From the NCBI GenBank assembly GCA_964448075.1, contig CAYUUR010000003.1, positions 133,610-197,609 on the forward strand: a stretch of 64,000 nucleotides of DNA. The letters are read 5' to 3'. Origin of the DNA: an uncultured Candidatus Saccharibacteria bacterium. GTDB lineage: Bacteria; Patescibacteriota; Saccharimonadia; Saccharimonadales; CAYUUR01. Positions within the stretch are counted from its first letter, which is position 1; the number at the start of each line of letters is the position of its first letter. The notes below the pieces were generated by a model. The model was not told the origin of the DNA. It did not search any database and saw nothing but the letters and a program-made list of their open reading frames with translations. The position numbers and the translations under genes were made by a program. Positions 4,306 through 63,526 of the stretch are shown here, piece after piece.

Positions 4306-5751
4306 CTAGCCCTGTTGAGCAGATGTCAGCGCGGCAAGCTGTTCGTCGATTCGTCGTAAACTCGTTTCTTTACCGAGGACAGCTAGACTTTCGGCTAGTC
4401 CAGGACTTGATGCTGCTTGCGTGGTCGCGATACGCACCAGACTAAACAGTACGGCAGGTTTCTGCCCACTCGATTCTAGTAATTTATTCAGTTCCGCTTG
4501 CAGTGCATCGACGCTGAATTCGGTCTCCGCCAAACGATCACGACAGCTCTGTAGTAGGTTGCGCAGTTCATACTTCTCTAGTTTCTTAAGTTGTTTATGA
4601 TCGTCAATTAGTTCTGGCTTTATGGGTAAATCAACAAAGAAAAAGCGCGTTAGCTCTGGTAGCTCCGCAAAGAACTTGAGTCGCTCCTGAACAAGGCTAA
4701 GCACGGCTTGTTTGTACGTATCGTCAGAATCCGCAGCTTCCTTAGGCCAGAAATCTGTCACCTTTTTGTACAATTCATCAAGTGACATTTCGCGAATAAA
4801 GTGCCCATTGGTCCAGAGTAGTCGGCGTTCGTCAAAATGCGCGCCACTTTTGCCCACACGATCAAGACTGAATTTTTCGATCAGTTCGTCGGTCGTAAAT
4901 ACTTCTTGCTCGCTCCCGTCGTTCCAACCGAGTGTTGCAATAAAGCTTCTCAATGCCTCGGGTAAATAGCCTTCTCGAATGTAATCCAGTACATCTTTAG
5001 CACCATCACGCTTGCTGAGCTTCTTATTGCCTTGCTCGTTCAAAATATGCGGCATTGTAGCAAACAAAGGTCGCTCTATTTGAAAAGCTTCATAGAGGTT
5101 CAGATAGTTCGGCATGCTTGCTAGGAATTCTTGTCCACGGATGATATGACTAATCTGCATTTCGGCATCGTCCACAATATGCGCAAAGTTATAGGTTGGA
5201 TAGCCATCAGATTTAATCAGTATAAAATCATCGACAACCTCTGGCCCGGTGCTGATGTCACCCATGACTTCGTCATGCCAGGTGTAGGCCTTCGGCTCAG
5301 ACTTGAAGCGTAATGGTGTGGTGCCATCCCAGGCTGGCGGGTTTTCTGGCCTGTGGTTGCGATACAGAAATGGCTTCTTATCCTTCTGCGCTTGTTCTCG
5401 GAACGCCTGGACTTCTGCCGCAGTGTACGGGTCCGCGTAGGCGCGGCCGGAGGCAACGAGCTGCTTGGCCCACTTTTTGTAACTTTCGAGTCGTTCACTT
5501 TGTCGGTATGGCCCGAACTCGCCTGGCTTGTCGGGACCTTCGTCATAGTGCAAGCCAAGAGCCTTGAGACTGTCCATAAGGTGCTTATCGGCGCCAGCGA
5601 CTTCTCTCTTTTGGTCGGTGTCTTCGAGCCGTAAGATAAATATGCCTTTATGTTGTCGAGCAAGCAGCCATGCAAAGAGCGCGGTTCTGATTCCACCAAC
5701 ATGGAGTAAGCCCGTGGGACTTGGGGCGAAGCGTGTTCTAACCTGTTTCAT
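4306..5751 (-). CDS. gltX: glutamate--tRNA ligase
   Basis: RFAPSPTGLLHVGG (HIGH), KLSKR (KMSKS), 481 aa, typical class I GluRS layout. Confidence 0.92.
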   Translation of the reverse strand: MKQVRTRFAPSPTGLLHVGGIRTALFAWLLARQHKGIFILRLEDTDQKREVAGADKHLMDSLKALGLHYDEGPDKPGEFGPYRQSERLESYKKWAKQLVASGRAYADPYTAAEVQAFREQAQKDKKPFLYRNHRPENPPAWDGTTPLRFKSEPKAYTWHDEVMGDISTGPEVVDDFILIKSDGYPTYNFAHIVDDAEMQISHIIRGQEFLASMPNYLNLYEAFQIERPLFATMPHILNEQGNKKLSKRDGAKDVLDYIREGYLPEALRSFIATLGWNDGSEQEVFTTDELIEKFSLDRVGKSGAHFDERRLLWTNGHFIREMSLDELYKKVTDFWPKEAADSDDTYKQAVLSLVQERLKFFAELPELTRFFFVDLPIKPELIDDHKQLKKLEKYELRNLLQSCRDRLAETEFSVDALQAELNKLLESSGQKPAVLFSLVRIATTQAASSPGLAESLAVLGKETSLRRIDEQLAALTSAQQG

Positions 5752-5796
5752 CAGAGGTATTTTAGCTGATTGTCAGCAAACTGTAAAAAGAAGTTA

Positions 5797-6936
5797 CTAC
5801 AGGCTACTGGCGACACGGAGCAACTGGTCGCTATTGAGGTTAGAGTTGCCATCAATCTGATACCATACGCCACCACTTACCCATGTGGCGCTCGAATTGT
5901 TGTACATGTAAATAGTGCGGCCTGCTTCCTGAAACGTTTGGTATGGCTGGTTGAGCGTGGCTACAAAGTTGTTTAAGAGCGATTCGCTGTTCCATTCCGA
6001 AGGACGTTGCGATATCTGAAAATTACGTCCGTCGGTATTCGATGCAAAGTTAATAGTAACGACTCCGGGAGCAGCCTGTACCGGCCCGCTCATTGCAAAA
6101 CCGGATGGTTGATATTCTGGCAAGCGTGCACTAAAACCAGCTTTGTTAGCGGCCATACGGACGGCAATGTTCGGGATATTCTGATAAGCAAAGAAGCCAA
6201 CGAGTAGTAGTACGGACAAGCTAGCAGCAGCAGTACTTACAAAGCGGCTACTTACACCAAGTTTGTGGGCGACTTTGTGTTTTGTTTTTGTCTTAGCTAG
6301 TTTGTGTTTGGTATGACTGGTTGATTTTTCCATGGCCGCAGCGATTGTAGATTGCGCTCCGCTGCTGTGTTTGGCAGCCACTGGTCGTGTGCTCGCTGTG
6401 AGCGGTGGTGCTTGTCTGTGTGCTGGTGCGACGTGTGCGGGCATTGGGGTGACGGGCAGATGCTTCGTGGTCTTAGTGACCGGCTTCGGACCGAATCCAA
6501 ACCGACTAATCAACGGACTCTGTGCGATCTTGTGCGCCTGTTGGGCACGTTTTTCTTGGATTTGAGCAGGAGTAGTTACTGCATGGTCTAGGGGGGTCGA
6601 TACTGCCGAGAATGCTTTGGTCTGTGTAGCGTTGGAGGGTTTCTTTACCGCGCTACGCATAAGGGTCTTTGCAGCTTGCGGCTTACGGGTGGCGTGACTT
6701 GGTTTTTGCGCGCTCGTGGCTGGTTTGACCTTTGGTGTGGGATGTACAGACACGGCCGAGCTACGGACGAATCCATCCATGTTTGTGCCCGCTGTGCGCT
6801 GAGCAGGCACTTTTTTGCCAGTTGCATTCTGATGAACGGTTACCTTTGACTGCGGCGCTGTCTCTGTCAACATCTTACCACTGACTGCGTCGTATTTTTT
6901 GCCGTTCAGTTCAATTACCGATTTGGTATGTGCCAC
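5797..6936 (-). CDS. hypothetical single-pass membrane protein (basic Ala/Pro/Thr-rich N-terminal half, TM, C-terminal globular domain)
   Basis: Long uninterrupted ORF; TM segment LSVLLLVGFFAY; no family recognised. Confidence 0.5.
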   Translation of the reverse strand: MAHTKSVIELNGKKYDAVSGKMLTETAPQSKVTVHQNATGKKVPAQRTAGTNMDGFVRSSAVSVHPTPKVKPATSAQKPSHATRKPQAAKTLMRSAVKKPSNATQTKAFSAVSTPLDHAVTTPAQIQEKRAQQAHKIAQSPLISRFGFGPKPVTKTTKHLPVTPMPAHVAPAHRQAPPLTASTRPVAAKHSSGAQSTIAAAMEKSTSHTKHKLAKTKTKHKVAHKLGVSSRFVSTAAASLSVLLLVGFFAYQNIPNIAVRMAANKAGFSARLPEYQPSGFAMSGPVQAAPGVVTINFASNTDGRNFQISQRPSEWNSESLLNNFVATLNQPYQTFQEAGRTIYMYNNSSATWVSGGVWYQIDGNSNLNSDQLLRVASSL

Positions 6937-9860: not shown

Positions 9861-9914
9861 GGGCGAGTGGCGGGTCTCAAGTGAAACATAGCCCAAGAAC
9901 AATTGTATACGCGC
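9861..9914 (+). repeat. partial upstream copy of the tRNA-Leu 5' end (two identical blocks split by a 31-nt insert)
   Basis: gggcgagtggcgg (9861-9873) equals tRNA 9973-9985. gtatacgcgc (9905-9914) equals tRNA 9991-10000. The blocks are 5 nt apart in the tRNA and 31 nt apart here; no T-arm follows. Confidence 0.6.
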
Positions 9915-9972
9915 TGCGCGAATCGTCCGCAAAGACGCTAAACTAACCTTTACAACTAGGCTTGATAACCGC

Positions 9973-10057
9973 GGGCGAGTGGCGGAACTGGTATACGCGC
10001 ACGACTCAAAATCGTGTTCCTTACGGATTGAGGGTTCGATTCCCTCCTCGCCCACCA
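9973..10057 (+). tRNA. tRNA-Leu(CAA), class II with long variable arm, CCA encoded
   Basis: Acceptor GGGCGAG/CTCGCCC; anticodon stem CACGA/TCGTG with loop CTCAAAA; T-arm GAGGG-TTCGATT-CCCTC; ACCA end. Confidence 0.9.
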
Positions 10058-10061
10058 ATCT

Positions 10062-10088
10062 AAAAACCGGCAAAGAGGCCGGTTTTTA
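10062..10088. terminator. bidirectional rho-independent terminator-like hairpin after tRNA-Leu
   Basis: aaaaaccggc-aaagag-gccggttttt: GC stem flanked by an A-run and a T-run. Confidence 0.6.
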
Positions 10089-10091
10089 GAT

Positions 10092-10220
10092 TGGTGAATG
10101 AAGCGAATCGAACCCATACGGCGCAGCCGCGGTCCGTTCATGAGGAGCTCGCGCAGGAGCTTGCTCTGAGTAAGCGACGAAATGCGAGGGTAAGGCCTGA
10201 GGTCCCTCCTCGCCCGCCAA
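10092..10220 (+). repeat. tRNA-linked mini-element (E-type, no cargo) ending in a copy of the tRNA-Leu 3' end
   Basis: Starts with tggtgaatgaagcgaatcgaaccc, a diverged inverted copy of the tRNA 3' half. Contains core gcgcaggagcttgctctgagtaa. Ends with tccctcctcgcccGccaa (10203-10220), 17/18 identical to tRNA 10041-10058. Confidence 0.6.
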
Positions 10221-10223
10221 CAG

Positions 10224-11213
10224 CTAACCAAGAATTTCCAGAAGTTGATCCGTTCTTCGGTTTAGCCGATCAGTAACTGCACTGTCACCAACGCTGCTTT
10301 CTCCAGCGAGCATTGCTTCGTATTCAAGTACACATTCCTCGATGACTTTCAAAGGGCTAACCCAGGCGCTTCCTGTGTCGTACTTCAACGCGAGGTCTCG
10401 TGTGGCAACGATAGTCGTTATCTCATCGGCGTATACGTCTTCTGTTCGGACTGCCTTGACCTGTATTTTGTATGCAGGATAGAACTGAAAGGCCTCATCA
10501 TCTTGCGTTAGACCTAAAATATCAAAAGATGTACGTGGCTCTCCGTATTTGCAGAATTTCACATCTTCACTAAACAAAGCTGGCCGTACAAACCAGCTTC
10601 CATCACCAATTCCTTGTACGCTGAACCTTTCGAGTACTAACGACACGGCTTGCTCTGCCGCGAGTCCCCAGAAATCACTTGTTTGCTCTGCATCTTCATT
10701 GTCTCTGTAATACTGCTGAGAATTAGCGATCAATTGCGACACATTAAGGTTACGATGGTGTGCGGCTCGTAATAGTTCGGGATCCATCCTTGTTTGAGTG
10801 GGGGTTAACTGTTCAAAGACATCCATGTGCGCAAGTAATACAGCAGCTCTGGCCGTTGAATCGCTGGAGAATATTTCACCTTCTGACATGAGTGCCTGTT
10901 GCATATTGTGGCGTGCTTGGCCAAGGAATGCGCTGCGAGATCCACTTTCAGTCTGCATAGCGATATCAAGATACATCGCTCCGCTGCGCGCCAGTGCCTC
11001 GCTCGTACCTTGTCCTTCGAGCTCATAGATTACTTGGAGTCTCTCTCCGTCGTCAGCTGCCGCAGTATATCGCTTGGCTAGTTCTTTAGGTGTGGTTGTG
11101 TGCGCTGGCGCCTTTTCTCCATTTGCACCATGATACGTCTGATAGTGACGCTTTCGGAGTCTGTCTCTCTGTTTTTGGGTTTTTTGGTACCCGTTAGAAT
11201 TGTGCCTTGACAT
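10224..11213 (-). CDS. hypothetical protein
   Basis: 329-aa uninterrupted ORF; stop lies 3 nt from the tRNA-Leu 3'-end repeat; no family recognised. Confidence 0.5.
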   Translation of the reverse strand: MSRHNSNGYQKTQKQRDRLRKRHYQTYHGANGEKAPAHTTTPKELAKRYTAAADDGERLQVIYELEGQGTSEALARSGAMYLDIAMQTESGSRSAFLGQARHNMQQALMSEGEIFSSDSTARAAVLLAHMDVFEQLTPTQTRMDPELLRAAHHRNLNVSQLIANSQQYYRDNEDAEQTSDFWGLAAEQAVSLVLERFSVQGIGDGSWFVRPALFSEDVKFCKYGEPRTSFDILGLTQDDEAFQFYPAYKIQVKAVRTEDVYADEITTIVATRDLALKYDTGSAWVSPLKVIEECVLEYEAMLAGESSVGDSAVTDRLNRRTDQLLEILG

Positions 11214-17695: not shown

Positions 17696-18589
17696 ATGAA
17701 AGTTGAACGGTACACAATAGATACGTTTCATCTGGAGTTTCCTGATGATGACACTTGTCTTGACTACATGTTCAACCTGGCCTACGGCAATCTCCCAGCC
17801 TGCCCTCAATGCGGTGTTGTTGAGCCCCGTTACTACCGCGTTAGAAACCGCAAATGCTACGCCTGTAATGACTGTGGCTACCAAATCAGCCCTCTGGCTA
17901 ATACTATCTTCCATAAGTCTGAAACCCCACTGACTAAATGGTTCTACGCCATCTACCTGTTCAGTGTTGGTAAAAACGGCGTATCAGCTAAAGAAATAGA
18001 ACGACACTTAGGCGTTACGTATAAGACCGCCTGGCGCATGGCTAAACAAATCCGCCTGATGATGCAGCAAGGTGGCTCTCCACTATCAGGTGTTGTTGAG
18101 GCTGATGAAACCTACGTAGGCGGTAAAACTCGCCGTGATAAAATGTACGATAACAAAACAGCCGTTGTAGGCATTGTTGAAAAGCAAAAAGGCACTGGTC
18201 AGGTTAAAGCTTTTGCAACTAAACAGGCTGACGCTACCGTAACGCTACCGTTCCTGCGAGCCAACATTACACCTGGCTCAACGCTACACACTGACGACAG
18301 TCGTATCTACTCGCGCGTTAAACGTGACTTCTCTCATGAATTCGTTAATCACAGCAAGCTGGAGTACGTAAAGTCCGGTGTTCACACCAACACCATTGAA
18401 GGCTTTTGGGGTCAGCTTAAGCGATCACTCGACGGTACGTACCACTGTGTTAGTCCGAAGTATCTTCAGCTGTACGTGAACGAGTTCGTTTACCGGTATA
18501 ACCACCGGCACGTCGCGGCTTTCCCGGCTTTGATTCAAGTGGCTGCGCAGCCCGTTCTAGTATCTTCTCGAAATCTTCCTTCGCGTTAG
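17696..18589 (+). CDS. IS1595-family (ISXO2-like) DDE transposase
   Basis: N-terminal zinc ribbon (CPQCG...CNDCG), HTH (ISAKEIERHLGVTYKTAWRM), DDE blocks EADETYVGG / LHTDDSRIY / NTIEGFWGQLKR. Confidence 0.85.
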   Translation: MKVERYTIDTFHLEFPDDDTCLDYMFNLAYGNLPACPQCGVVEPRYYRVRNRKCYACNDCGYQISPLANTIFHKSETPLTKWFYAIYLFSVGKNGVSAKEIERHLGVTYKTAWRMAKQIRLMMQQGGSPLSGVVEADETYVGGKTRRDKMYDNKTAVVGIVEKQKGTGQVKAFATKQADATVTLPFLRANITPGSTLHTDDSRIYSRVKRDFSHEFVNHSKLEYVKSGVHTNTIEGFWGQLKRSLDGTYHCVSPKYLQLYVNEFVYRYNHRHVAAFPALIQVAAQPVLVSSRNLPSR

Positions 18590-19095: not shown

Positions 19096-20004
19096 ATGCG
19101 TGATCTAGCAATCAATGAAGCTGAAGTTAATAAATCTAGCAAAGTGGATGCAGTGAAGTACCGCAGACCACTAAACCCTCAGCAGCTGAAAACCCTGCAC
19201 CTACTGTATTGGTACCGTTTCTGCACAGCCAAGCAACTAGCTCGTTCGCTGGACAAATCCAGCCATAAGGCCATACAAAACAAGCTGCAGATACTTGAAG
19301 CGCAAGGCTTTATTGGCAAACGCTATGACACGTCCTACAAGCTTGTCGGAAGACCAGCTGAGTACTTTATTACTCCCAAAGGCGTCCGTGTACTTGAAAA
19401 GGCCAAACCAAATACTACCAACCAGTGGGCAACCAAAAGCCTGTACAAGAACAAGACGGTGTCTGGTGACTTCCTGAGGCATTGCGTCACCGTAACTGAA
19501 GTATCTCAAAGACTGAGAGCTATATATGGAGACAGCAACAAGCTCCGTAGATTCTCCAAAAGCTATATGGCAGAGTTTAGCCACTATCCCCAATGGACAC
19601 CGGACTTACACCTTGAGATACCAGGCAAAGGTGAAACGCCCGCCAAACACTACTTTGTAGACATTTGGGATGGTACCAAGCCGTTCTTTGTCAGTGTCAG
19701 GAAGGCACGGAACTATGTGAACTTCAAAGACAGTGGCGGCAAGGATGGCACTGAATGGCAGGAGGATGAACAGTTTCCGGCAATACTGGCCATATGCCAG
19801 AACGAGCAAACCCAGAAGAAGCTAAACCGGCAGATGAGGCGTATTTTAGACGAGCAGTGGGATGAGGAGCTGGTGTTTGCTACAACGACAAGGCAGCAGC
19901 TTATGGAAGCTACCAAACCAGCACAGAAGGTGTGGCTACAGATTCACTCGGACGAGGAGCCAACCAAACGCTCTTTGAACCAGCTATTTGCACCAAAAAG
20001 CTAA
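19096..20004 (+). CDS. replication-relaxation family protein (plasmid-type winged-helix)
   Basis: LNPQQLKTLHLLYWYRFCTAKQLARSL...KLQILEAQGFIGKRYD matches the N-terminal wHTH pattern of Replic_Relax proteins. Confidence 0.6.
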   Translation: MRDLAINEAEVNKSSKVDAVKYRRPLNPQQLKTLHLLYWYRFCTAKQLARSLDKSSHKAIQNKLQILEAQGFIGKRYDTSYKLVGRPAEYFITPKGVRVLEKAKPNTTNQWATKSLYKNKTVSGDFLRHCVTVTEVSQRLRAIYGDSNKLRRFSKSYMAEFSHYPQWTPDLHLEIPGKGETPAKHYFVDIWDGTKPFFVSVRKARNYVNFKDSGGKDGTEWQEDEQFPAILAICQNEQTQKKLNRQMRRILDEQWDEELVFATTTRQQLMEATKPAQKVWLQIHSDEEPTKRSLNQLFAPKS

Positions 20005-20294: not shown

Positions 20295-21635
20295 ATGGAA
20301 CCCAACGTGGAAACCCTGACCCAAACCATTAACATCGTCATCGGCGGAGACGGCACCGGCAGCCTGGCAGATACTGGCGTCTCCCTCCTGCCGCTCATAG
20401 CCATTGCCGTAATGCTCATAGCTTCCGGTATTCTTTCGTGGCGCTTTGCCCACCGCTCCCACAAACTCAGCTTCCGTAGTCTCGGCGTCTTTGCCTTCTT
20501 TGCCCTCGCAGGCCTTGGTTTGACCCTCAACCTCTCAGCCGTCACCGCTGCTCCCACTCTCACCCTCGGTACTAACCAAGACACGCTCACTGTCACCGTT
20601 CCCGAAGGCGGAGGTGAAGCCAGCACGACTACCACCCTCACATCAGGTACCACCAACCCTGAGGGCTATACCCTCACGGCAGCACTAGCTGAAGCCGAGC
20701 CAGGCATAGCTATTAAGCTCAAGGGTGGAGACATCACTACCAGCACAGCCCTCGAACCAGGCGCTCCTGCCTTAACGCTCAAAACCACTGAAAGTGCCAG
20801 CTCAAACGACACCACTGAAGTAACGCTGGACTTCACCATTGATGGTACGGTAACCTCAGGCACCAAAGAACTCAAGCTGGCCTATACGGTTACCGACAAC
20901 GAGCCAACCGGTCCGGCTACCCTCCAAAGCTTCACCACTGAGGCCTGCGATGCACTACCTGCCTACACCGGCAGCAATGAAGACGCCGTTATCACCCTGA
21001 CCGACAGTAGAGACGATCAAGCATACCAGGTCGCCAAACTAGCCGATAACAACTGCTGGATGCTCGACAACCTCAAGCTGGGCTCTACTACGGGCACCAT
21101 AGAACTGACACCAGAGGATTCTAATGTCGGCAGTAACTTCACGTTGCCGCAGCTCTACAGCGGTTATTCCGGTGACTATCTGAGCTATGACGACCCACAC
21201 GCCTATGGCCCGCTCCCCGGAGACACCGGAGAAGGCGAAACCAACTACGGCTACTTATACAACTGGCCTGCCGCCACTGCCGGTGAAACAAGAGACAGCC
21301 ATGACGAAACCGCAGGCGATGCACCATACTCCATTTGTCCGGCCAATTGGCGGCTGCCAACCGGTGGTAGTGGCGGTGAGTTCGCAGCGCTCTATACCGC
21401 ACTCGGTAGCAGCCCTGCCCAGTGGAATTACCCAGGACCGTTTCAAGGCACGTTCGCGGGCTACTGGTGGGAAGGCTTCAACGATCAGGGTGACTACGGC
21501 TACGTGTGGTCGAGTTCGGCCTACCCGGGCAATCCTGACTACGCGTTCAACGCGTACTTCGGCGCAGGTGAAGTGGGCCCAGCCGTCTACGGCGATCGGA
21601 GCGCTGGGCTGTCTGTCCGCTGTCTCTTAAATTAG
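20295..21635 (+). CDS. DGR target (variable) protein: N-terminal TM segments, Thr-rich region, Fib_succ_major (FISUMP)-like region, C-type-lectin-fold VR at the C-terminus
   Basis: DSRDDQAYQVAKLADNNCWMLDNLKLG (TIGR02145-like). The C-terminal 57 codons are the VR partner of the TR at 23067-23236. Confidence 0.85.
   Translation: MEPNVETLTQTINIVIGGDGTGSLADTGVSLLPLIAIAVMLIASGILSWRFAHRSHKLSFRSLGVFAFFALAGLGLTLNLSAVTAAPTLTLGTNQDTLTVTVPEGGGEASTTTTLTSGTTNPEGYTLTAALAEAEPGIAIKLKGGDITTSTALEPGAPALTLKTTESASSNDTTEVTLDFTIDGTVTSGTKELKLAYTVTDNEPTGPATLQSFTTEACDALPAYTGSNEDAVITLTDSRDDQAYQVAKLADNNCWMLDNLKLGSTTGTIELTPEDSNVGSNFTLPQLYSGYSGDYLSYDDPHAYGPLPGDTGEGETNYGYLYNWPAATAGETRDSHDETAGDAPYSICPANWRLPTGGSGGEFAALYTALGSSPAQWNYPGPFQGTFAGYWWEGFNDQGDYGYVWSSSAYPGNPDYAFNAYFGAGEVGPAVYGDRSAGLSVRCLLN
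21453..21622 (+). repeat. DGR variable repeat (VR) including the 3' IMH-like invariant end
   Basis: Gap-free 170-bp alignment to 23067-23236. 19 mismatches by my count, all at TR adenines. The last 21 nt, cgctgggctgtctgtccgctg, are identical. Confidence 0.9.
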
Positions 21636-21648
21636 CGTCAGCTAATTC

Positions 21649-21720
21649 CGGTACCCCACAAAGCGAGACTGGCGCGAAGGCGTGACCACGCCTGAGCCCG
21701 TCGAGTCGACTGGGGTACCG
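21649..21720 (+). promoter_or_regulatory. GC-rich inverted repeat immediately downstream of VR (DGR-associated stem structure)
   Basis: cggtacccca (21649-21658) is the perfect reverse complement of tggggtaccg (21711-21720). An inner hairpin ggcg-tgacca-cgcc is present. Confidence 0.55.
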
Positions 21721-21743
21721 TCGCAGGATTTTATGATACGGAC

Positions 21744-22835
21744 ATGGCCATGAATACTTCAGACGAACGCGCCACGTGGCTCGCCAAAGAACTCAGGAAG
21801 GCGTACGTAGCTGCGCGGCGCGGCAAGACCAACAAGCCCGAGGTTGAAAAGTTCGATGCTATCGCCAAGCTTGAGTTGCCAGCGCTGGCCAAAGAAATTC
21901 ACTCGCGCAGCTATACACCCCGTCCTTCAACAGCGTTTATCGTGAACAAACCCGTCAAGCGGGAGATATTCGCCGCCGACTTCCGCGACCGGGTGGTGCA
22001 TCATTTTCTGTTCAATCAGGTCAACAAGTGGTGGGACGCCCGGTTTATCGAAGATAACTATAGTTGCCGCGTTGGCAAAGGTACGCTCTATGGTATCCGC
22101 CGTTTAGACCATCATATCCGCTCGGTGAGCCGTAACTATACCCGGCCAGCCTACGTACTCAAGCTGGATCTGCAAGGGTACTTTATGAGCTTGGAGCGCA
22201 AAAAGCTGTACGCGCGGGCAATGTGGGGGCTGGACAGGCAGTTTCCCGAAAGAGGCTATGCCTATCAGCTGTGTAAGTTTCTCTGGAAGGTGATAATTTT
22301 CAACGACCCGCTCAATAAGGTGGAATTCAATTGCCCGCGGAGCGCCTGGAAAGGCTTGCCGCCGAGCAAAAGTCTGTTCCACCAGCCCAAAGGGCGCGGC
22401 ATCGCCATCGGCAATCTGACGTCGCAGCTGCTGAGCAACATCTATCTCGACCAGCTGGATCAGTTTGTAACGCTGGAACTAGGATTTAAACATTATGGGC
22501 GCTACGTTGATGATTTTTATATTGTTTCTGAGAGCAAAGCCGAGTTGGTTCAGGCTAGTAGTACTATAGAGGCGTACGTCACAGGTCGACTCGGTCTTGT
22601 TTTGCACCCTCATAAACGACACCTGCAAGAGTGTCATAAGGGGGTTGCGTTCTTAGGCGCGGTGATCTATCCGCACCGCATCCACCCCGGCAAACGACTG
22701 AAGCGCAACCTGCTGGCAGCACTCTCTCAGGAGGATTGCTCAAAAGAAACCGAAGCGTCATATAAGGGATTAGTGAAGCATTACAAGCATCATAAACTAC
22801 TAAAAGGTGTAGCTATTGAACGGGGGGTACAATAG
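21744..22835 (+). CDS. DGR-type reverse transcriptase
   Basis: IGNLTSQLLSNIYL ([I/L]GxxxSQ, DGR RT signature) and GRYVDDFYIV (YxDD catalytic box). Located between VR and TR. Confidence 0.9.
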   Translation: MAMNTSDERATWLAKELRKAYVAARRGKTNKPEVEKFDAIAKLELPALAKEIHSRSYTPRPSTAFIVNKPVKREIFAADFRDRVVHHFLFNQVNKWWDARFIEDNYSCRVGKGTLYGIRRLDHHIRSVSRNYTRPAYVLKLDLQGYFMSLERKKLYARAMWGLDRQFPERGYAYQLCKFLWKVIIFNDPLNKVEFNCPRSAWKGLPPSKSLFHQPKGRGIAIGNLTSQLLSNIYLDQLDQFVTLELGFKHYGRYVDDFYIVSESKAELVQASSTIEAYVTGRLGLVLHPHKRHLQECHKGVAFLGAVIYPHRIHPGKRLKRNLLAALSQEDCSKETEASYKGLVKHYKHHKLLKGVAIERGVQ

Positions 22836-23066
22836 AGGCTATGCTTTGCCAGGCTCAGGGGCGGGCGGTGCTTGGCGGCTTTTTGCTTACTGCCCGAGGA
22901 TCGGCCTGGCGTATAAGCATATCTAAGAGACAATACTCACTAGCTTTGACTTGTTTCCTAGCTAGTTCTATAGGGGCAGCGCCGCCAAGACCTCCCTGCG
23001 TTTGGTACGCTGGACGCAGTACAACGAGTAGTATTGATACACGTGCGCTGGTCGGGGGCCTTCAGT

Positions 23067-23236
23067 TTCGCGGGCAACTGGTGGGAAGGCTTCAACGATC
23101 AGGGTGACAACGGCAACGTGTGGTCGAGTTCGGCCAACCCGGACAATCCTGACAACGCGTTCAACGCGAACTTCAACGCAGATGAAGTGAACCCAGCCAA
23201 CAACAACAATCGGAACGCTGGGCTGTCTGTCCGCTG
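23067..23236 (+). repeat. DGR template repeat (TR), Asn-codon (AAC) rich
   Basis: Reads ...GDNGNVWSSSANPDNPDNAFNANFNADEVNPANNNNRNAGLSVR in the VR frame. Differs from VR only where TR has A. Confidence 0.9.
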
Positions 23237-23672
23237 ACTCTTAGAGCATATTTTGTAACAGTTTTGCACTCACTACACCTCTATTGGCTCATCTTCCTCT
23301 GAGCCGGTATTTTAGCACTTTTTGCTTCATTCGTCTTTGTTTTAACTGTTCCTTGACGTTAGGGGATACTCTCGTCTATCTCTGTATTGCCCTGTTGAAT
23401 TTTTTCTGTACGTACTTCTTGTTCTTGGTCCGCCATCAGTTCTCCTTTAGTGCCCGTTGTTAGTTGTCCATCTAGTATGTAGGCTCTCGATCGTTTAATC
23501 TGTACAAAATGTCACATACTGTTTTTGGGTTGCGTGCTATTAAAAATGGCCTACGAAAGCGTAAGGCCATTCAAGTGTGATTCATATGCAGTTAACACTG
23601 CCAACTAAGTGAAGGCGTCATTCATTTGTTGAGATCAAACGCAAGTCATCCTATGTAAACAAGCTTGTTTCG

Positions 23673-23770
23673 TGGCGGAGAGAGAGGGTAACGCGCAGCT
23701 GCTTCCGTTCTCGGAGCAAGCTCCTGTGAGCGGACTTGCTGACCGAACCCGGCTCGAATCCCTCTTCTTT
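23673..23770 (-). repeat. tRNA-linked mini-element (E-type, no cargo) ending in a copy of the tRNA-Ser 3' end
   Basis: tggcggagagagaggg (23673-23688) is identical to tRNA-Ser 23816-23831. The core (tRNA-sense) is GGTTCGGTCAGCAAGTCCGCTCACAGGAGCTTGCTCCGAGAACGGAAGCAGCTGCGCGTTACCC. The 5' GAAGAGGGATTCGAG can pair with the 3' CCCTCTC. Confidence 0.6.
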
Positions 23771-23780
23771 AGAGACAAGA

Positions 23781-23811
23781 AAAACGGCCACACTGATGTG
23801 TGACCATTTTT
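23781..23811. terminator. bidirectional terminator-like hairpin after tRNA-Ser
   Basis: aaaac-ggccacac-tgat-gtgtgacc-attttt. Confidence 0.6.
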
Positions 23812-23815
23812 CTCC

Positions 23816-23907
23816 TGGCGGAGAGAGAGGGATTCGAACCCTCGAGACGTTTTGCAACGCCTACACGCTTTCCAAGCGTGCTCCTTCAGCCACTCGGACA
23901 CCTCTCC
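23816..23907 (-). tRNA. tRNA-Ser(GGA), class II, CCA encoded
   Basis: Reverse complement GGAGAGGTGTCCGAGTGGCTGAAGGAGCACGCTTGGAAAGCGTG...GAGGGTTCGAATCCCTCTCTCTCCGCCA; anticodon loop TTGGAAA. Confidence 0.9.
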
Positions 23908-38891: not shown

Positions 38892-39069
38892 TGCCTTTTG
38901 GGGTCGGGTAATGCACAGCTGCACTCGTTCTCGGAGTAAACTCCTGCGAGCGATCTTGATGACCGAACCGACAACCTGCGCTAGCTAAAGCTATCGCGTT
39001 GTCTTGTTCGGACCCAGCCTAGAAAGAATAAAAAAAGACCCTCAGTTGAGGATCTTGTTTCATTGGCTC
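38892..39069 (-). repeat. E-type mini-element plus terminator plus minimal tRNA-Asn-like remnant
   Basis: tRNA-sense block GGTTCGGTCATCAAGATCGCTCGCAGGAGTTTACTCCGAGAACGAGTGCAGCTGTGCATTACCC has 12 differences in 64 nt versus the tRNA-Ser-linked copy. It ends CCGACCCCAAAAGGCA (compare tRNA-Asn CCGACCCCGGGAGCCA). Terminator at 39036-39056; tggctc at 39064-39069. Confidence 0.55.
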
Positions 39070-49982: not shown

Positions 49983-51260
49983 ATGCTGGACGAAAATACT
50001 CAACCACTTAAGTACTGCCTGTACGCTCGAAAGTCTTCCGAGTCTGACGAGCGTCAGGCAATGTCGATTGACTCACAACTTAACGAAATGAGAGCACTAG
50101 CCGAAAATGAAGGCCTGCAGATAGTCTGCGAGCTTCAGGAGAGTCACTCTGCTAAAGATTCTGGCAAAAGACCCGTATACAACAAATTACTTAAGGGCTT
50201 AGCAAGCGAAGAATATAATGCCGTCCTCACATGGGCACCCGATCGACTAAGTAGGAATGCTGGCGACCTTGGATCGGTTGTTGACCTCATGGATCAAGGC
50301 AAGCTACTGCATATCCGTACTTACTCGCAGACGTTCACAAATAACCCGAACGAGAAGTTCTTACTAATGATTCTATGTTCGCAAGCCAAACTTGAGAACG
50401 ATAACAAAAGTATTAACGTCAAACGAGGCATTAGAAACAAATGCGAGATGGGTTGGCGACCAGGCGTTGCACCGCTTGGGTACATGAATCGAGCATTCGC
50501 AGGTGTTAACGACATAATCCTCGATCCTGATAGATCGGAACTAATTATCGAAGCTTTTCAAAAAGCTGGGTACGAGCGTTGGAGCGGTCGTAGGATAAAA
50601 GCATGGCTTGATGAGCAAGGCTTTACTAATCGTTCAGGAAAACCGATTAGTGTGAGTCAAATATTAGTAATACTCAGTACGCCATTCTACTATGGCAAAT
50701 TCCAATACCCTGAAGCACCAGATGCACCATGGTACACAGGTGCCCATAAGCCACTTATATCTAAAGAGTTGTTCGATCTCGTGCAAGAAACGAGAGGTGT
50801 CAACAAGGGTGTGTGGGGATCAAAAACATTTGCCTTCCGAGGACTACTGAAATGTGGACGGTGTACTGCAGATATCACAGCACAAGACAAATTCAAGACA
50901 CTAAAAAATGGTGATGTAAAAAGATTCGTCTACTACAACTGCACAAGACGTAAAGACCCAAACTGTGCCGAGAAATATGTGAATGAAGAAAGGCTTTGTG
51001 AATTGATGCAGGGTTTTATTGAGAAACATCACGAGGAGATAAAAATAACGGAGAAACTTAGGGCAAGAGTCGACAAACACTTCTATACAACTAAAACGAT
51101 ACTTACTCACTACAAAATCGATCAAAAACTAAATAATCCATTCATTGAGTATGCTCGATACGTACTTGCTGACGGCACGGATAGTGAGAGAACATTCTTA
51201 GCATCAAATATGGGTCCTATGCTTCAAATAAAGGATGGCGAACTTGAGTTCTATGTATAG
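49983..51260 (+). CDS. large serine recombinase (resolvase N-terminal domain, recombinase domain, zinc ribbon)
   Basis: YCLYARKSSESDERQAMSIDSQ (catalytic Ser context), APDRLSRN, GYMNR..., CGRCTADITAQ...YYNCTRRKDPNC. Confidence 0.85.
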   Translation: MLDENTQPLKYCLYARKSSESDERQAMSIDSQLNEMRALAENEGLQIVCELQESHSAKDSGKRPVYNKLLKGLASEEYNAVLTWAPDRLSRNAGDLGSVVDLMDQGKLLHIRTYSQTFTNNPNEKFLLMILCSQAKLENDNKSINVKRGIRNKCEMGWRPGVAPLGYMNRAFAGVNDIILDPDRSELIIEAFQKAGYERWSGRRIKAWLDEQGFTNRSGKPISVSQILVILSTPFYYGKFQYPEAPDAPWYTGAHKPLISKELFDLVQETRGVNKGVWGSKTFAFRGLLKCGRCTADITAQDKFKTLKNGDVKRFVYYNCTRRKDPNCAEKYVNEERLCELMQGFIEKHHEEIKITEKLRARVDKHFYTTKTILTHYKIDQKLNNPFIEYARYVLADGTDSERTFLASNMGPMLQIKDGELEFYV

Positions 51261-63280: not shown

Positions 63281-63526
63281 GGGAAGGTCACCGAACCCGG
63301 TCGCAATCTTCCCTGCTTGCTCCTCATATAGAGAACCGGTAAGGTTCGAACCAAATCATCAGAGGTGATTTGGTTCATCTCTCCCCTCTTTTCTGGTTCG
63401 AATGCTTACATCACAATACTGTATTTTAGGGAAACCGGTCTCGAACTAGTTAACAGATAAGAAGTAGTTTGACAGAAATAGAAAAACCGGTCACAGGAAA
63501 CCGGTCTACCTCTGTTGTGCTTGGTC
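63281..63526 (-). repeat. F-type element and spacer/terminator downstream of tRNA-Asn (tRNA-fragment-rich)
   Basis: Contains several GGTTCGAA-type T-loop fragments in both orientations, an 11-bp hairpin gaaccaaatca-tcagag-gtgatttggttc, the block shared with 55420-55580, and the ACCGGT..ACCGGT-TTTT terminator at about 63485-63510. Confidence 0.5.

Follow-up and report, generated by a model that had tools for sequence, protein, structure and literature searches.

A conserved gene-less unit linked to tRNA genes in Saccharibacteria

The segment that follows tRNA-Leu(CAA) in the 64,000-nt stretch of Saccharibacteria DNA analysed here (the window) is a gene-less, tRNA-linked unit, one end of which is the duplicated tRNA-Leu 3' end. 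It belongs to a strongly conserved and previously undescribed Saccharibacteria family, whose members combine a shared structured core with ends specific to the local tRNA. Saccharibacteria have tiny genomes of about 1 Mb with few recognised mobile elements.

Results

Parts of the unit behind tRNA-Leu

All four parts that an initial annotation of this DNA had described after tRNA-Leu are present (Table 1). The hairpin H0 is a 19-nt inverted repeat with 100% complementarity that starts within the tRNA gene. It takes in the last 5 nt of the tRNA (CACCA/TGGTG), closes with TGGTG, and is flanked by an A5 run on the 5' side and a T5 run on the 3' side. A simple terminator scanner did not call H0 of the Leu copy because the T-run sits within the stem. 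The next part, I, had been described as an inverted copy of the tRNA 3' half. The TGGTG in I is an arm of H0, and AGCGAATCGAACCC (10102-10115) is complementary to the T-arm GGGTTCGATTCCCT at 13 of 14 positions; the acceptor-strand part of the Leu copy resembles tRNA-Leu only at chance level (score 4.0, compared with 3.94 for other tRNAs). In the Leu copy, the earlier description thus applies to the hairpin arm and to the T-loop part, which is generic, and not to the acceptor part.

The P2 hairpin is weakened in the window copy by a T>C change; orthologues have GGGGTTCGTTC. The small hairpin before the displaced tRNA end D' is variable, with AGG..CCT in the window, GGGC..GCCC in orthologue L108 and GGA..UCC in L109. 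In an alternative RNAalifold structure, 10184-10190 pairs with the start of D' and the inner hairpin is minimal only. Positions 10203-10220 are identical to 10041-10058 at 17 of 18 nt, and by our own arithmetic the chance of such a repeat within 200 nt is about 1e-7. Four nucleotides separate the end of D' from the stop codon of a convergent gene (10224-11213).

Table 1. Positions of the units, their parts and other features; positions refer to the window unless a locus is named.
Feature	Position	Strand	Basis or remark
Degenerate pseudo 5' half of tRNA-Leu, GGGCGAGTGGCGG..GTATACGCGC..AATCGT	9863..9972	+	upstream of the real gene
tRNA-Leu(CAA), intact	9973..10057	+	ARAGORN; Rfam tRNA 59.8 bits
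D, last 17 nt of tRNA-Leu, the repeated sequence	10041-10057	+	
Unit behind tRNA-Leu	10058-10219		
H0, 19-bp perfect hairpin, terminator-like	10053..10096	+	inverted repeat; arms 10053-10071 / 10078-10096
I, partly inverted copy of the tRNA 3' part, tggtgaatgaagcgaatcgaaccc	10092-10115	+	
P2 hairpin, GAATCGAACCC pairing with T-loop-like GCGGTCCGTTC	10108..10139	+	RNAalifold on orthologues
Conserved core module	10129..10188	+	covariance model R1, 61.4 bits
Enclosing helix, CAT / ATG	10139-10141 / 10182-10184	+	
P3 hairpin	10146-10176	+	within core
Core motif CAGGAGCTTGCTCTGAG	10154-10170	+	inside P3
P4, variable small hairpin between core and D'	10184..10202	+	read from orthologue sequences
D', displaced copy of the tRNA 3' end	10203..10219	+	16/17 identical (G10216 replaces A)
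Second unit, behind tRNA-Ser(GGA) 23816-23907	23673..23815	-	
Second unit, core	23692-23751	-	69.2 bits
Second unit, D'	23673-23689		16/17
Third unit, orphan, tRNA-Asn-like ends	38900..39069	-	no adjoining tRNA
Third unit, core	38912-38971	-	67 bits
Third unit, hairpin	39036-39055		
Third unit, truncated tRNA-Asn-like D'	38900-38909		
IS1595-family transposase	17696-18589		
Replic_Relax protein	19096-20004		
DGR, complete	20295-23243		
DGR target gene	20295-21635		Fib_succ_major domain
DGR variable repeat	21453-21629		
DGR reverse transcriptase	21744-22835		
DGR template repeat	23067-23243		
Large serine recombinase	49983-51260		
Region with upstream ~85-nt insert, L031	~6354-6550	-	
Region with upstream ~85-nt insert, L102	~5572-5760	-	
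Region with upstream ~85-nt insert, L063	863-1073		
Region with upstream ~85-nt insert, L013	5336-5506		

Size, host range and targets of the family

A degenerate form of the core motif matches the window three times (0.04 expected), and nhmmer and a covariance model agree on exactly three copies, at the core positions of Table 1. This bears out the recurrence at tRNA-Ser and at tRNA-Asn-like ends reported in the initial annotation. The second unit also holds H0, I and D', and the third has a long P2. Apart from these copies, core-less hairpin remnants resembling the P2 region of the unit lie 3' of tRNA-Asn at 63285-63400 (GGGAAG..CACCGAACCCGGTCGCAAT..CTTCCC, and GAACCAAATCA..TGATTTGGTTC).

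Scanning one genome per species with an exact pattern produced 47 loci, of which 41 are in Saccharibacteria or Patescibacteria MAGs. The six remaining matches, from outside Saccharibacteria, were rejected as chance, the match being confined to a 25-nt hairpin. A metagenome scan yielded 60 further loci. The covariance model, R1, was built on 42 sequences and matched 58 times in the genome-scan loci and 63 times in the metagenome loci, partly outside the search pattern. The unit is present in about 100 Saccharibacteria contigs.

Targets were tallied for 59 non-redundant units, each 66-120 nt behind a tRNA on the same strand. They span 32 isoacceptor types and 17 amino acids, and the combination of a shared core with tRNA-specific ends, first noticed within the window, holds across all 32 types. 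When compared with the last 17 nt of the tRNA, D' is identical at 17 positions in 22 units and at 16 in nine (at least 16/17 in 31/59), and it is decayed in about a third of units. The units are 127-210 nt long without an ORF, and their general build is a hairpin or terminator, an inverted tRNA-3'-like stretch, a hairpin module of 60-90 nt and a copy of the tRNA end of 17-19 nt. The hairpin module is placed where T-loop position ~58/59 would be, and the target tRNA stays intact in every case. The junction reads GGTTCG, core, (A/T)TCC; GGTTCG, or AATACGA at smpB, invariably precedes the core, and the T-stem 3' strand comes after it. H0 has the GC-rich hairpin and U-run of a rho-independent terminator: at least five T in an 8-nt window were found in 56/59 units and a T-run of at least four in 50/59. 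The U-run is missing in three exceptions (L041, L043 and L057), in which another tRNA is downstream.

A search with the Rfam 15 covariance models gave only tRNA at the gathering score and nothing credible at E<=10, and no description of the unit was found in the literature searched. Viral contigs and phage records contained no match to it. Clustering of the ORFs over the ~100 loci showed only housekeeping genes near tRNAs as neighbours and no enriched protein. In L069 (4982-5100), a core-type hairpin lies directly 3' of a signal peptidase gene and is followed by its own hairpin; it has neither GGTTCG nor a tRNA-end copy, and a core is thus not confined to tRNA surroundings.

Structure of the core and its strand

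Covariation, which the initial annotation had proposed as a check, is present in the core. In P3, 94.8% of cells are paired and double changes occur at 6 of 12 pairs. Its covariation score is 0.334, compared with 0.119 for shuffled alignments (0/500 shuffles reach 0.334), and slid registers score at most 0.081. Matches outside the search pattern have compensatory apical stems (GAAG/CUUC, GAUG/CAUC and GGAAU/AUUCC). A C-A mismatch, an R-A mismatch, a bulged A and a YUUR loop are constant features of P3, and the closing bases of the loop covary (C-G, U-A and U-G). The enclosing helix covaries in several subtypes (CAUC/GAUG, AUAAUC/GAUUAU and AUAAUG/CAUUAU) and is replaced in one subtype by a purine-rich internal loop.

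The structure belongs to the tRNA-sense strand: 14 G-U pairs and not a single A-C pair occur in the upper stem, as fits this strand, and folding of the whole unit is better on it in 25/29 units. Between I and D', the antisense strand gives the better pairing (28 compared with 11), which was not counted as evidence because D' is C-rich and neutral G>A decay of I gives the same pattern. The substitution spectrum is not transition-dominated. An antisense sRNA with a 5' end resembling a primer-binding site was dropped, since the wobble pairs of P3 and the whole-unit folding favour the sense strand. A long helix P1, formed by I with D', was dropped as a conserved feature because its specificity is only weak. 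Folding does not support D' as an unpaired guide (predicted pairing 0.65, compared with 0.68 for the rest of the unit), and readings as hammerhead, SRP, group II domain V, T-box or tmRNA-like RNA found no support in Rfam. In L096 and L063, I is the perfect reverse complement of D and D-hairpin-I is a perfect palindrome; elsewhere I is decayed. Where D and D' differ, I agrees with the upstream D 10 times and with D' three times.

Conservation at tRNA-Leu in relatives

Relatives in which the neighbouring protein is 88% and 81% identical retain the unit at tRNA-Leu(CAA). Synonymous positions of the neighbouring gene are 47-51% identical, whereas identity to the window is 92-98% in the core, 83-94% from I to P2, 79-88% in P4 with D' and 74-79% in H0. 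P3 contains a compensatory change from G-C to A-U between orthologues, and D', at 16/17 in the window, is 17/17 in orthologues L108-L112. The tRNA-Leu unit is inherited vertically and is under strong purifying selection in the orthologous loci. The difference between the core and the synonymous sites indicates that the unit is probably maintained by selection and is not a scar. In L108-L112, short-read contigs end within or just past the tRNA-Leu unit; the units apparently break assemblies.

Presence, absence and arrays of units

The initial annotation had proposed a check for presence/absence polymorphism at tRNA-Leu, where the relatives keep the unit; a precise pair was found at another tRNA. 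At tRNA-Thr(CGT), with a common downstream sequence, L028 is empty and L043 is occupied. The difference is exactly 127 nt and consists of 108 unique nt and a 19-nt repeat of the tRNA end. Similarly, the gap between tRNA-Thr and tRNA-Gly is 1-8 nt in L019 and L040, and it holds a unit in L041 and L043. The unit is thus precisely present or absent between related genomes.

In L003, L004, L021 and L035, two or three tandem units of clearly different core lineages follow one tRNA, and each then has its own tRNA-end copy and hairpin. L053 contains an array with three sites and two ORFs; L101 also has three sites, and of the two ORFs between these one is in reverse orientation. The array ORFs encode 172, 311, 244 and 197 aa, one belonging to the EEP family and the others without an assigned function, and no recombinase domain was found in the cargo ORFs tested. 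D..D' duplications without a core also exist.

In L018, two units are found at the 3' end of smpB. Each brings an 84-nt replacement of the C-terminal coding end of SmpB and a hairpin, and the core is preceded by AATACGA instead of GGTTCGA. The outermost copy has only ACAAGCGTCA in common and then a different, plausible SmpB tail; the original SmpB tail lies beyond the outermost 10-nt repeat. By analogy, this arrangement corresponds to the logic of integrative elements that supply a replacement for the displaced gene end.

Displaced fragments upstream of tRNA genes

In Saccharibacteria, displaced fragments are found both 5' and 3' of tRNA genes, and a structured insert often marks their junction. 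A copy of the first 14 nt was found 112-306 nt upstream for 10/126 tRNA genes in unit loci, and besides those ten the window tRNA-Leu likewise has an upstream copy of its 5' end. In four of these loci (Table 1), the upstream copy is a pseudo-tRNA that extends through the 5' strand of the T-stem, and its T-loop holds a different conserved structured insert of ~85 nt. This insert has the hairpin UGCCAGUGGCA, whose stem covaries, and then GCAAGG..., and it has no match in Rfam. The idea of a split tRNA, made of a 5' pseudo-half and the 3' unit, was dropped; the two co-occur no more often than the base rate.

Recombinases and mobile neighbours

A tyrosine integrase acting in trans, which the initial annotation had suggested searching for, was not found in the window. 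There was no tyrosine recombinase among the 10 window ORFs scanned, nor in a profile search of all window ORFs. Only three Xer-like genes occur among ~640 ORFs in the ~100 loci, and none adjoins an array. The large serine recombinase of the window is distant from any unit, and neither the IS1595-family transposase nor the Replic_Relax protein adjoins one. No TnpA/TnpB-like gene was found among the window ORFs or the neighbours of unit loci, and no circular form, autonomous relative or promoter of the unit was found.

The window contains a complete DGR, and within its 177-nt repeat every difference between template and variable copy falls on a template adenine. A link of the units to its reverse transcriptase was rejected, as the DGR is complete in itself and on the other strand, and most unit loci lack a reverse transcriptase.

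Discussion

Two of the options named in the initial annotation remain alive, a non-autonomous cassette and a small structured RNA locus. We prefer the first because it is the most economical account of the evidence for insertion together with the evidence for constraint, and hold it to be an evenly balanced proposition that the segment is a minimal, cargo-less, non-autonomous integrative cassette of a Saccharibacteria-specific family. Recombination of a small circular or single-stranded intermediate with the tRNA gene would take place at the junction of T-loop and T-stem. The unit that enters would provide a new functional tRNA 3' end and a terminator, and the tRNA would therefore survive; the old 3' end would be displaced downstream and become D'. 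The palindrome D-hairpin-I and the core may fold on the tRNA-sense strand into a cis-acting site like integron attC or CTX-phage attP, on which a putative recombinase would act in trans. The tRNA-Leu copy would now be sedentary and selectively maintained. Several points count against the cassette. No recombinase is linked to the units, and neither a circular form or autonomous relative nor a match to viral or phage sequences was found. The constraint at tRNA-Leu resembles a host-level function rather than that of a selfish passenger, and the presence/absence pair could also come from deletion between D and D'. The pairing of I with D' is weakly specific, and to our knowledge a circle of 130-200 nt is very small for known recombinases.

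Among known systems, integron cassettes, tandem tRNA islands (tycheposons), CIMEs and IMEX come closest, and the defining features tested fail for each. Like integron attC cassettes, the units are small, promoter-less, in some cases gene-less, and arranged head-to-tail. At the end of each is a site of conserved structure, in which the wobble pairs are in favour of one strand. Reassortment of modules between arrays is another shared feature, and arrayed, structured sites with imperfect palindromes are present in L053 and L101. Unlike integrons, the units are without an adjacent IntI, attI or Pc, and the attachment sites are many different tRNA genes and smpB. The junction motif is GGTTCG/TWCGA and not GTTRRRY (RYYYAAC ... 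GTTRRRY was not seen), the unit restores the 3' end of the target gene, and the site has a highly conserved sequence core.

CIMEs are integrase-less remnants between att sites. With these, with tycheposons and with tyrosine-integrase islands, the units share the tRNA site and the direct repeat of the tRNA 3' part. They differ in size (127-210 nt compared with kilobases), in the lack of an integrase in any array, in the covarying hairpin module that takes the T-loop position within the displaced copy, in the inverted target copy beside the hairpin and in the use of nearly every tRNA type. Islands of the tycheposon type integrate at tRNA genes and carry a partial tRNA copy at the far end, and newcomers push older elements outward (10.1101/2020.12.28.424599). 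The units resemble them in these respects.

The two inverted target-like halves around the hairpin, a perfect palindrome in L096 and L063 and decayed elsewhere, could fold into a duplex that mimics the target, in the manner of IMEX, and arrays form at a single site, again as in IMEX. IMEX of the CTX-phage type have a folded single-stranded attP, their integration leaves an inverted half beside the junction, and their target is dif. In the present family, the target is a tRNA 3' end and not dif, there is no phage genome, and the units are under host-level constraint. Miniature elements of IS200/IS605 and TnpB omega-RNA have a fixed short motif, hairpin-rich ends and a strand-specific structure followed by flank-derived sequence. 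The units resemble them in their insertion beside a fixed short motif, in hairpin-rich ends and in a strand-specific structure before flank-derived sequence; they differ in that TnpA/TnpB is missing, the target end is duplicated, and the Rfam families for these RNAs do not match. Unlike MITEs, the units have no terminal inverted repeats, and the repeat is a tRNA end of 17-19 nt, or 10/84 nt at smpB.

The unit may instead function as a structured RNA within the 3' trailer of the tRNA, an explanation that we consider rather unlikely. Read-through of a leaky hairpin would give an RNA whose terminal part mimics the 3' end of the cognate tRNA, with a role in tRNA maturation, in quality control or as a decoy for factors binding tRNA 3' ends, and the duplications would be held by selection and not by mobility. 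The main argument for it is the strong purifying selection on the vertically inherited copy, together with the compensatory change in P3. The wobble pairs fit the sense strand only, the units within tRNA operons (L041, L043 and L057) are necessarily co-transcribed, and D' is perfect in L108-L112. However, a terminator-like hairpin lies directly upstream in 56/59 units and no promoter was found. Cargo ORF arrays, smpB units with a replacement coding end and unrelated lineages stacked behind one tRNA are left unexplained by a trailer RNA, and about a third of the units have a decayed D'.

It is also conceivable, with a low probability, that the core alone is mobile, as a small T-loop-specific insert that resembles an intron or IS200/IS605 and has its landing site 3' of TWCGA, and that the duplications arise separately. 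Such an insert would be confined to redundant tRNA fragments because landing in a working gene would be lethal. The constant position of the core, after GGTTCG or the smpB AATACGA and before the T-stem 3' strand, is consistent with this, as are the unrelated ~85-nt insert in the T-loop of upstream pseudo-tRNAs (L031, L102, L063 and L013) and the core-less D..D' duplications. However, the empty and occupied loci differ by the entire unit and not by the core only, no tRNA fragment was seen both with and without a core, and a TnpA/TnpB-like gene was not found. Frequent earlier partial duplications would also be required in very small genomes.

RNA-guided homing or integration seems improbable. 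The core would serve as scaffold and D' as a 17-nt guide that matches the sequence after the universal T-loop motif, similar to TnpB omega-RNA or to the tRNA-targeting short crRNA of type V-K CRISPR transposons. The build of the units fits this: they combine a conserved scaffold with a variable 3' segment identical to the target, beside a constant TTCGA motif, and smpB follows the same logic. Against it, there is no effector gene near any unit and a terminator lies upstream; the predicted base-pairing of D' is on a par with that of the remaining unit, and a restored tRNA would become a target in its turn.

In favour of a decayed prophage or ICE end (attR scar), integration classically leaves tRNA 3' ends repeated in direct orientation, and the tRNA-Ser copy borders on an island with the DGR, a transposase and a relaxase-like gene. 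Such an end is nevertheless excluded by our results, and a chance repeat has next to no probability: the core covaries and retains 92-98% identity beside saturated synonymous sites, units of one architecture are found at 32 tRNA types in ~100 contigs, the core motif is far above expectation in the window, and phage and viral sequences do not match. The findings that the initial annotation had named as refuting its own reading, among them absence from other tRNA loci and lack of covariation, are contradicted by the same data, and the deletion remnant proposed in the initial annotation is ruled out by the strong purifying selection in orthologous loci, the covariation of the family and the lack of similarity to phage records.

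Returning to the integrative cassette, we suggest tentatively that Saccharibacteria may have an unrecognised gene-capture and integration system that uses tRNA genes and smpB as attachment sites and small cassettes that supply a replacement gene end. With similar reservation, such a system might work through a folded, target-mimicking single-stranded site or RNA, retargetable to essentially any tRNA, with no dedicated integrase nearby. Keeping one scaffold and changing the target-matching end is the kind of logic used in programmable integration tools. The units end many metagenome contigs and can mislead the annotation of tRNAs and islands. If these readings are true, the family could stand for a new gene-capture route in the Candidate Phyla Radiation or for a tRNA-linked structured RNA of a new class.
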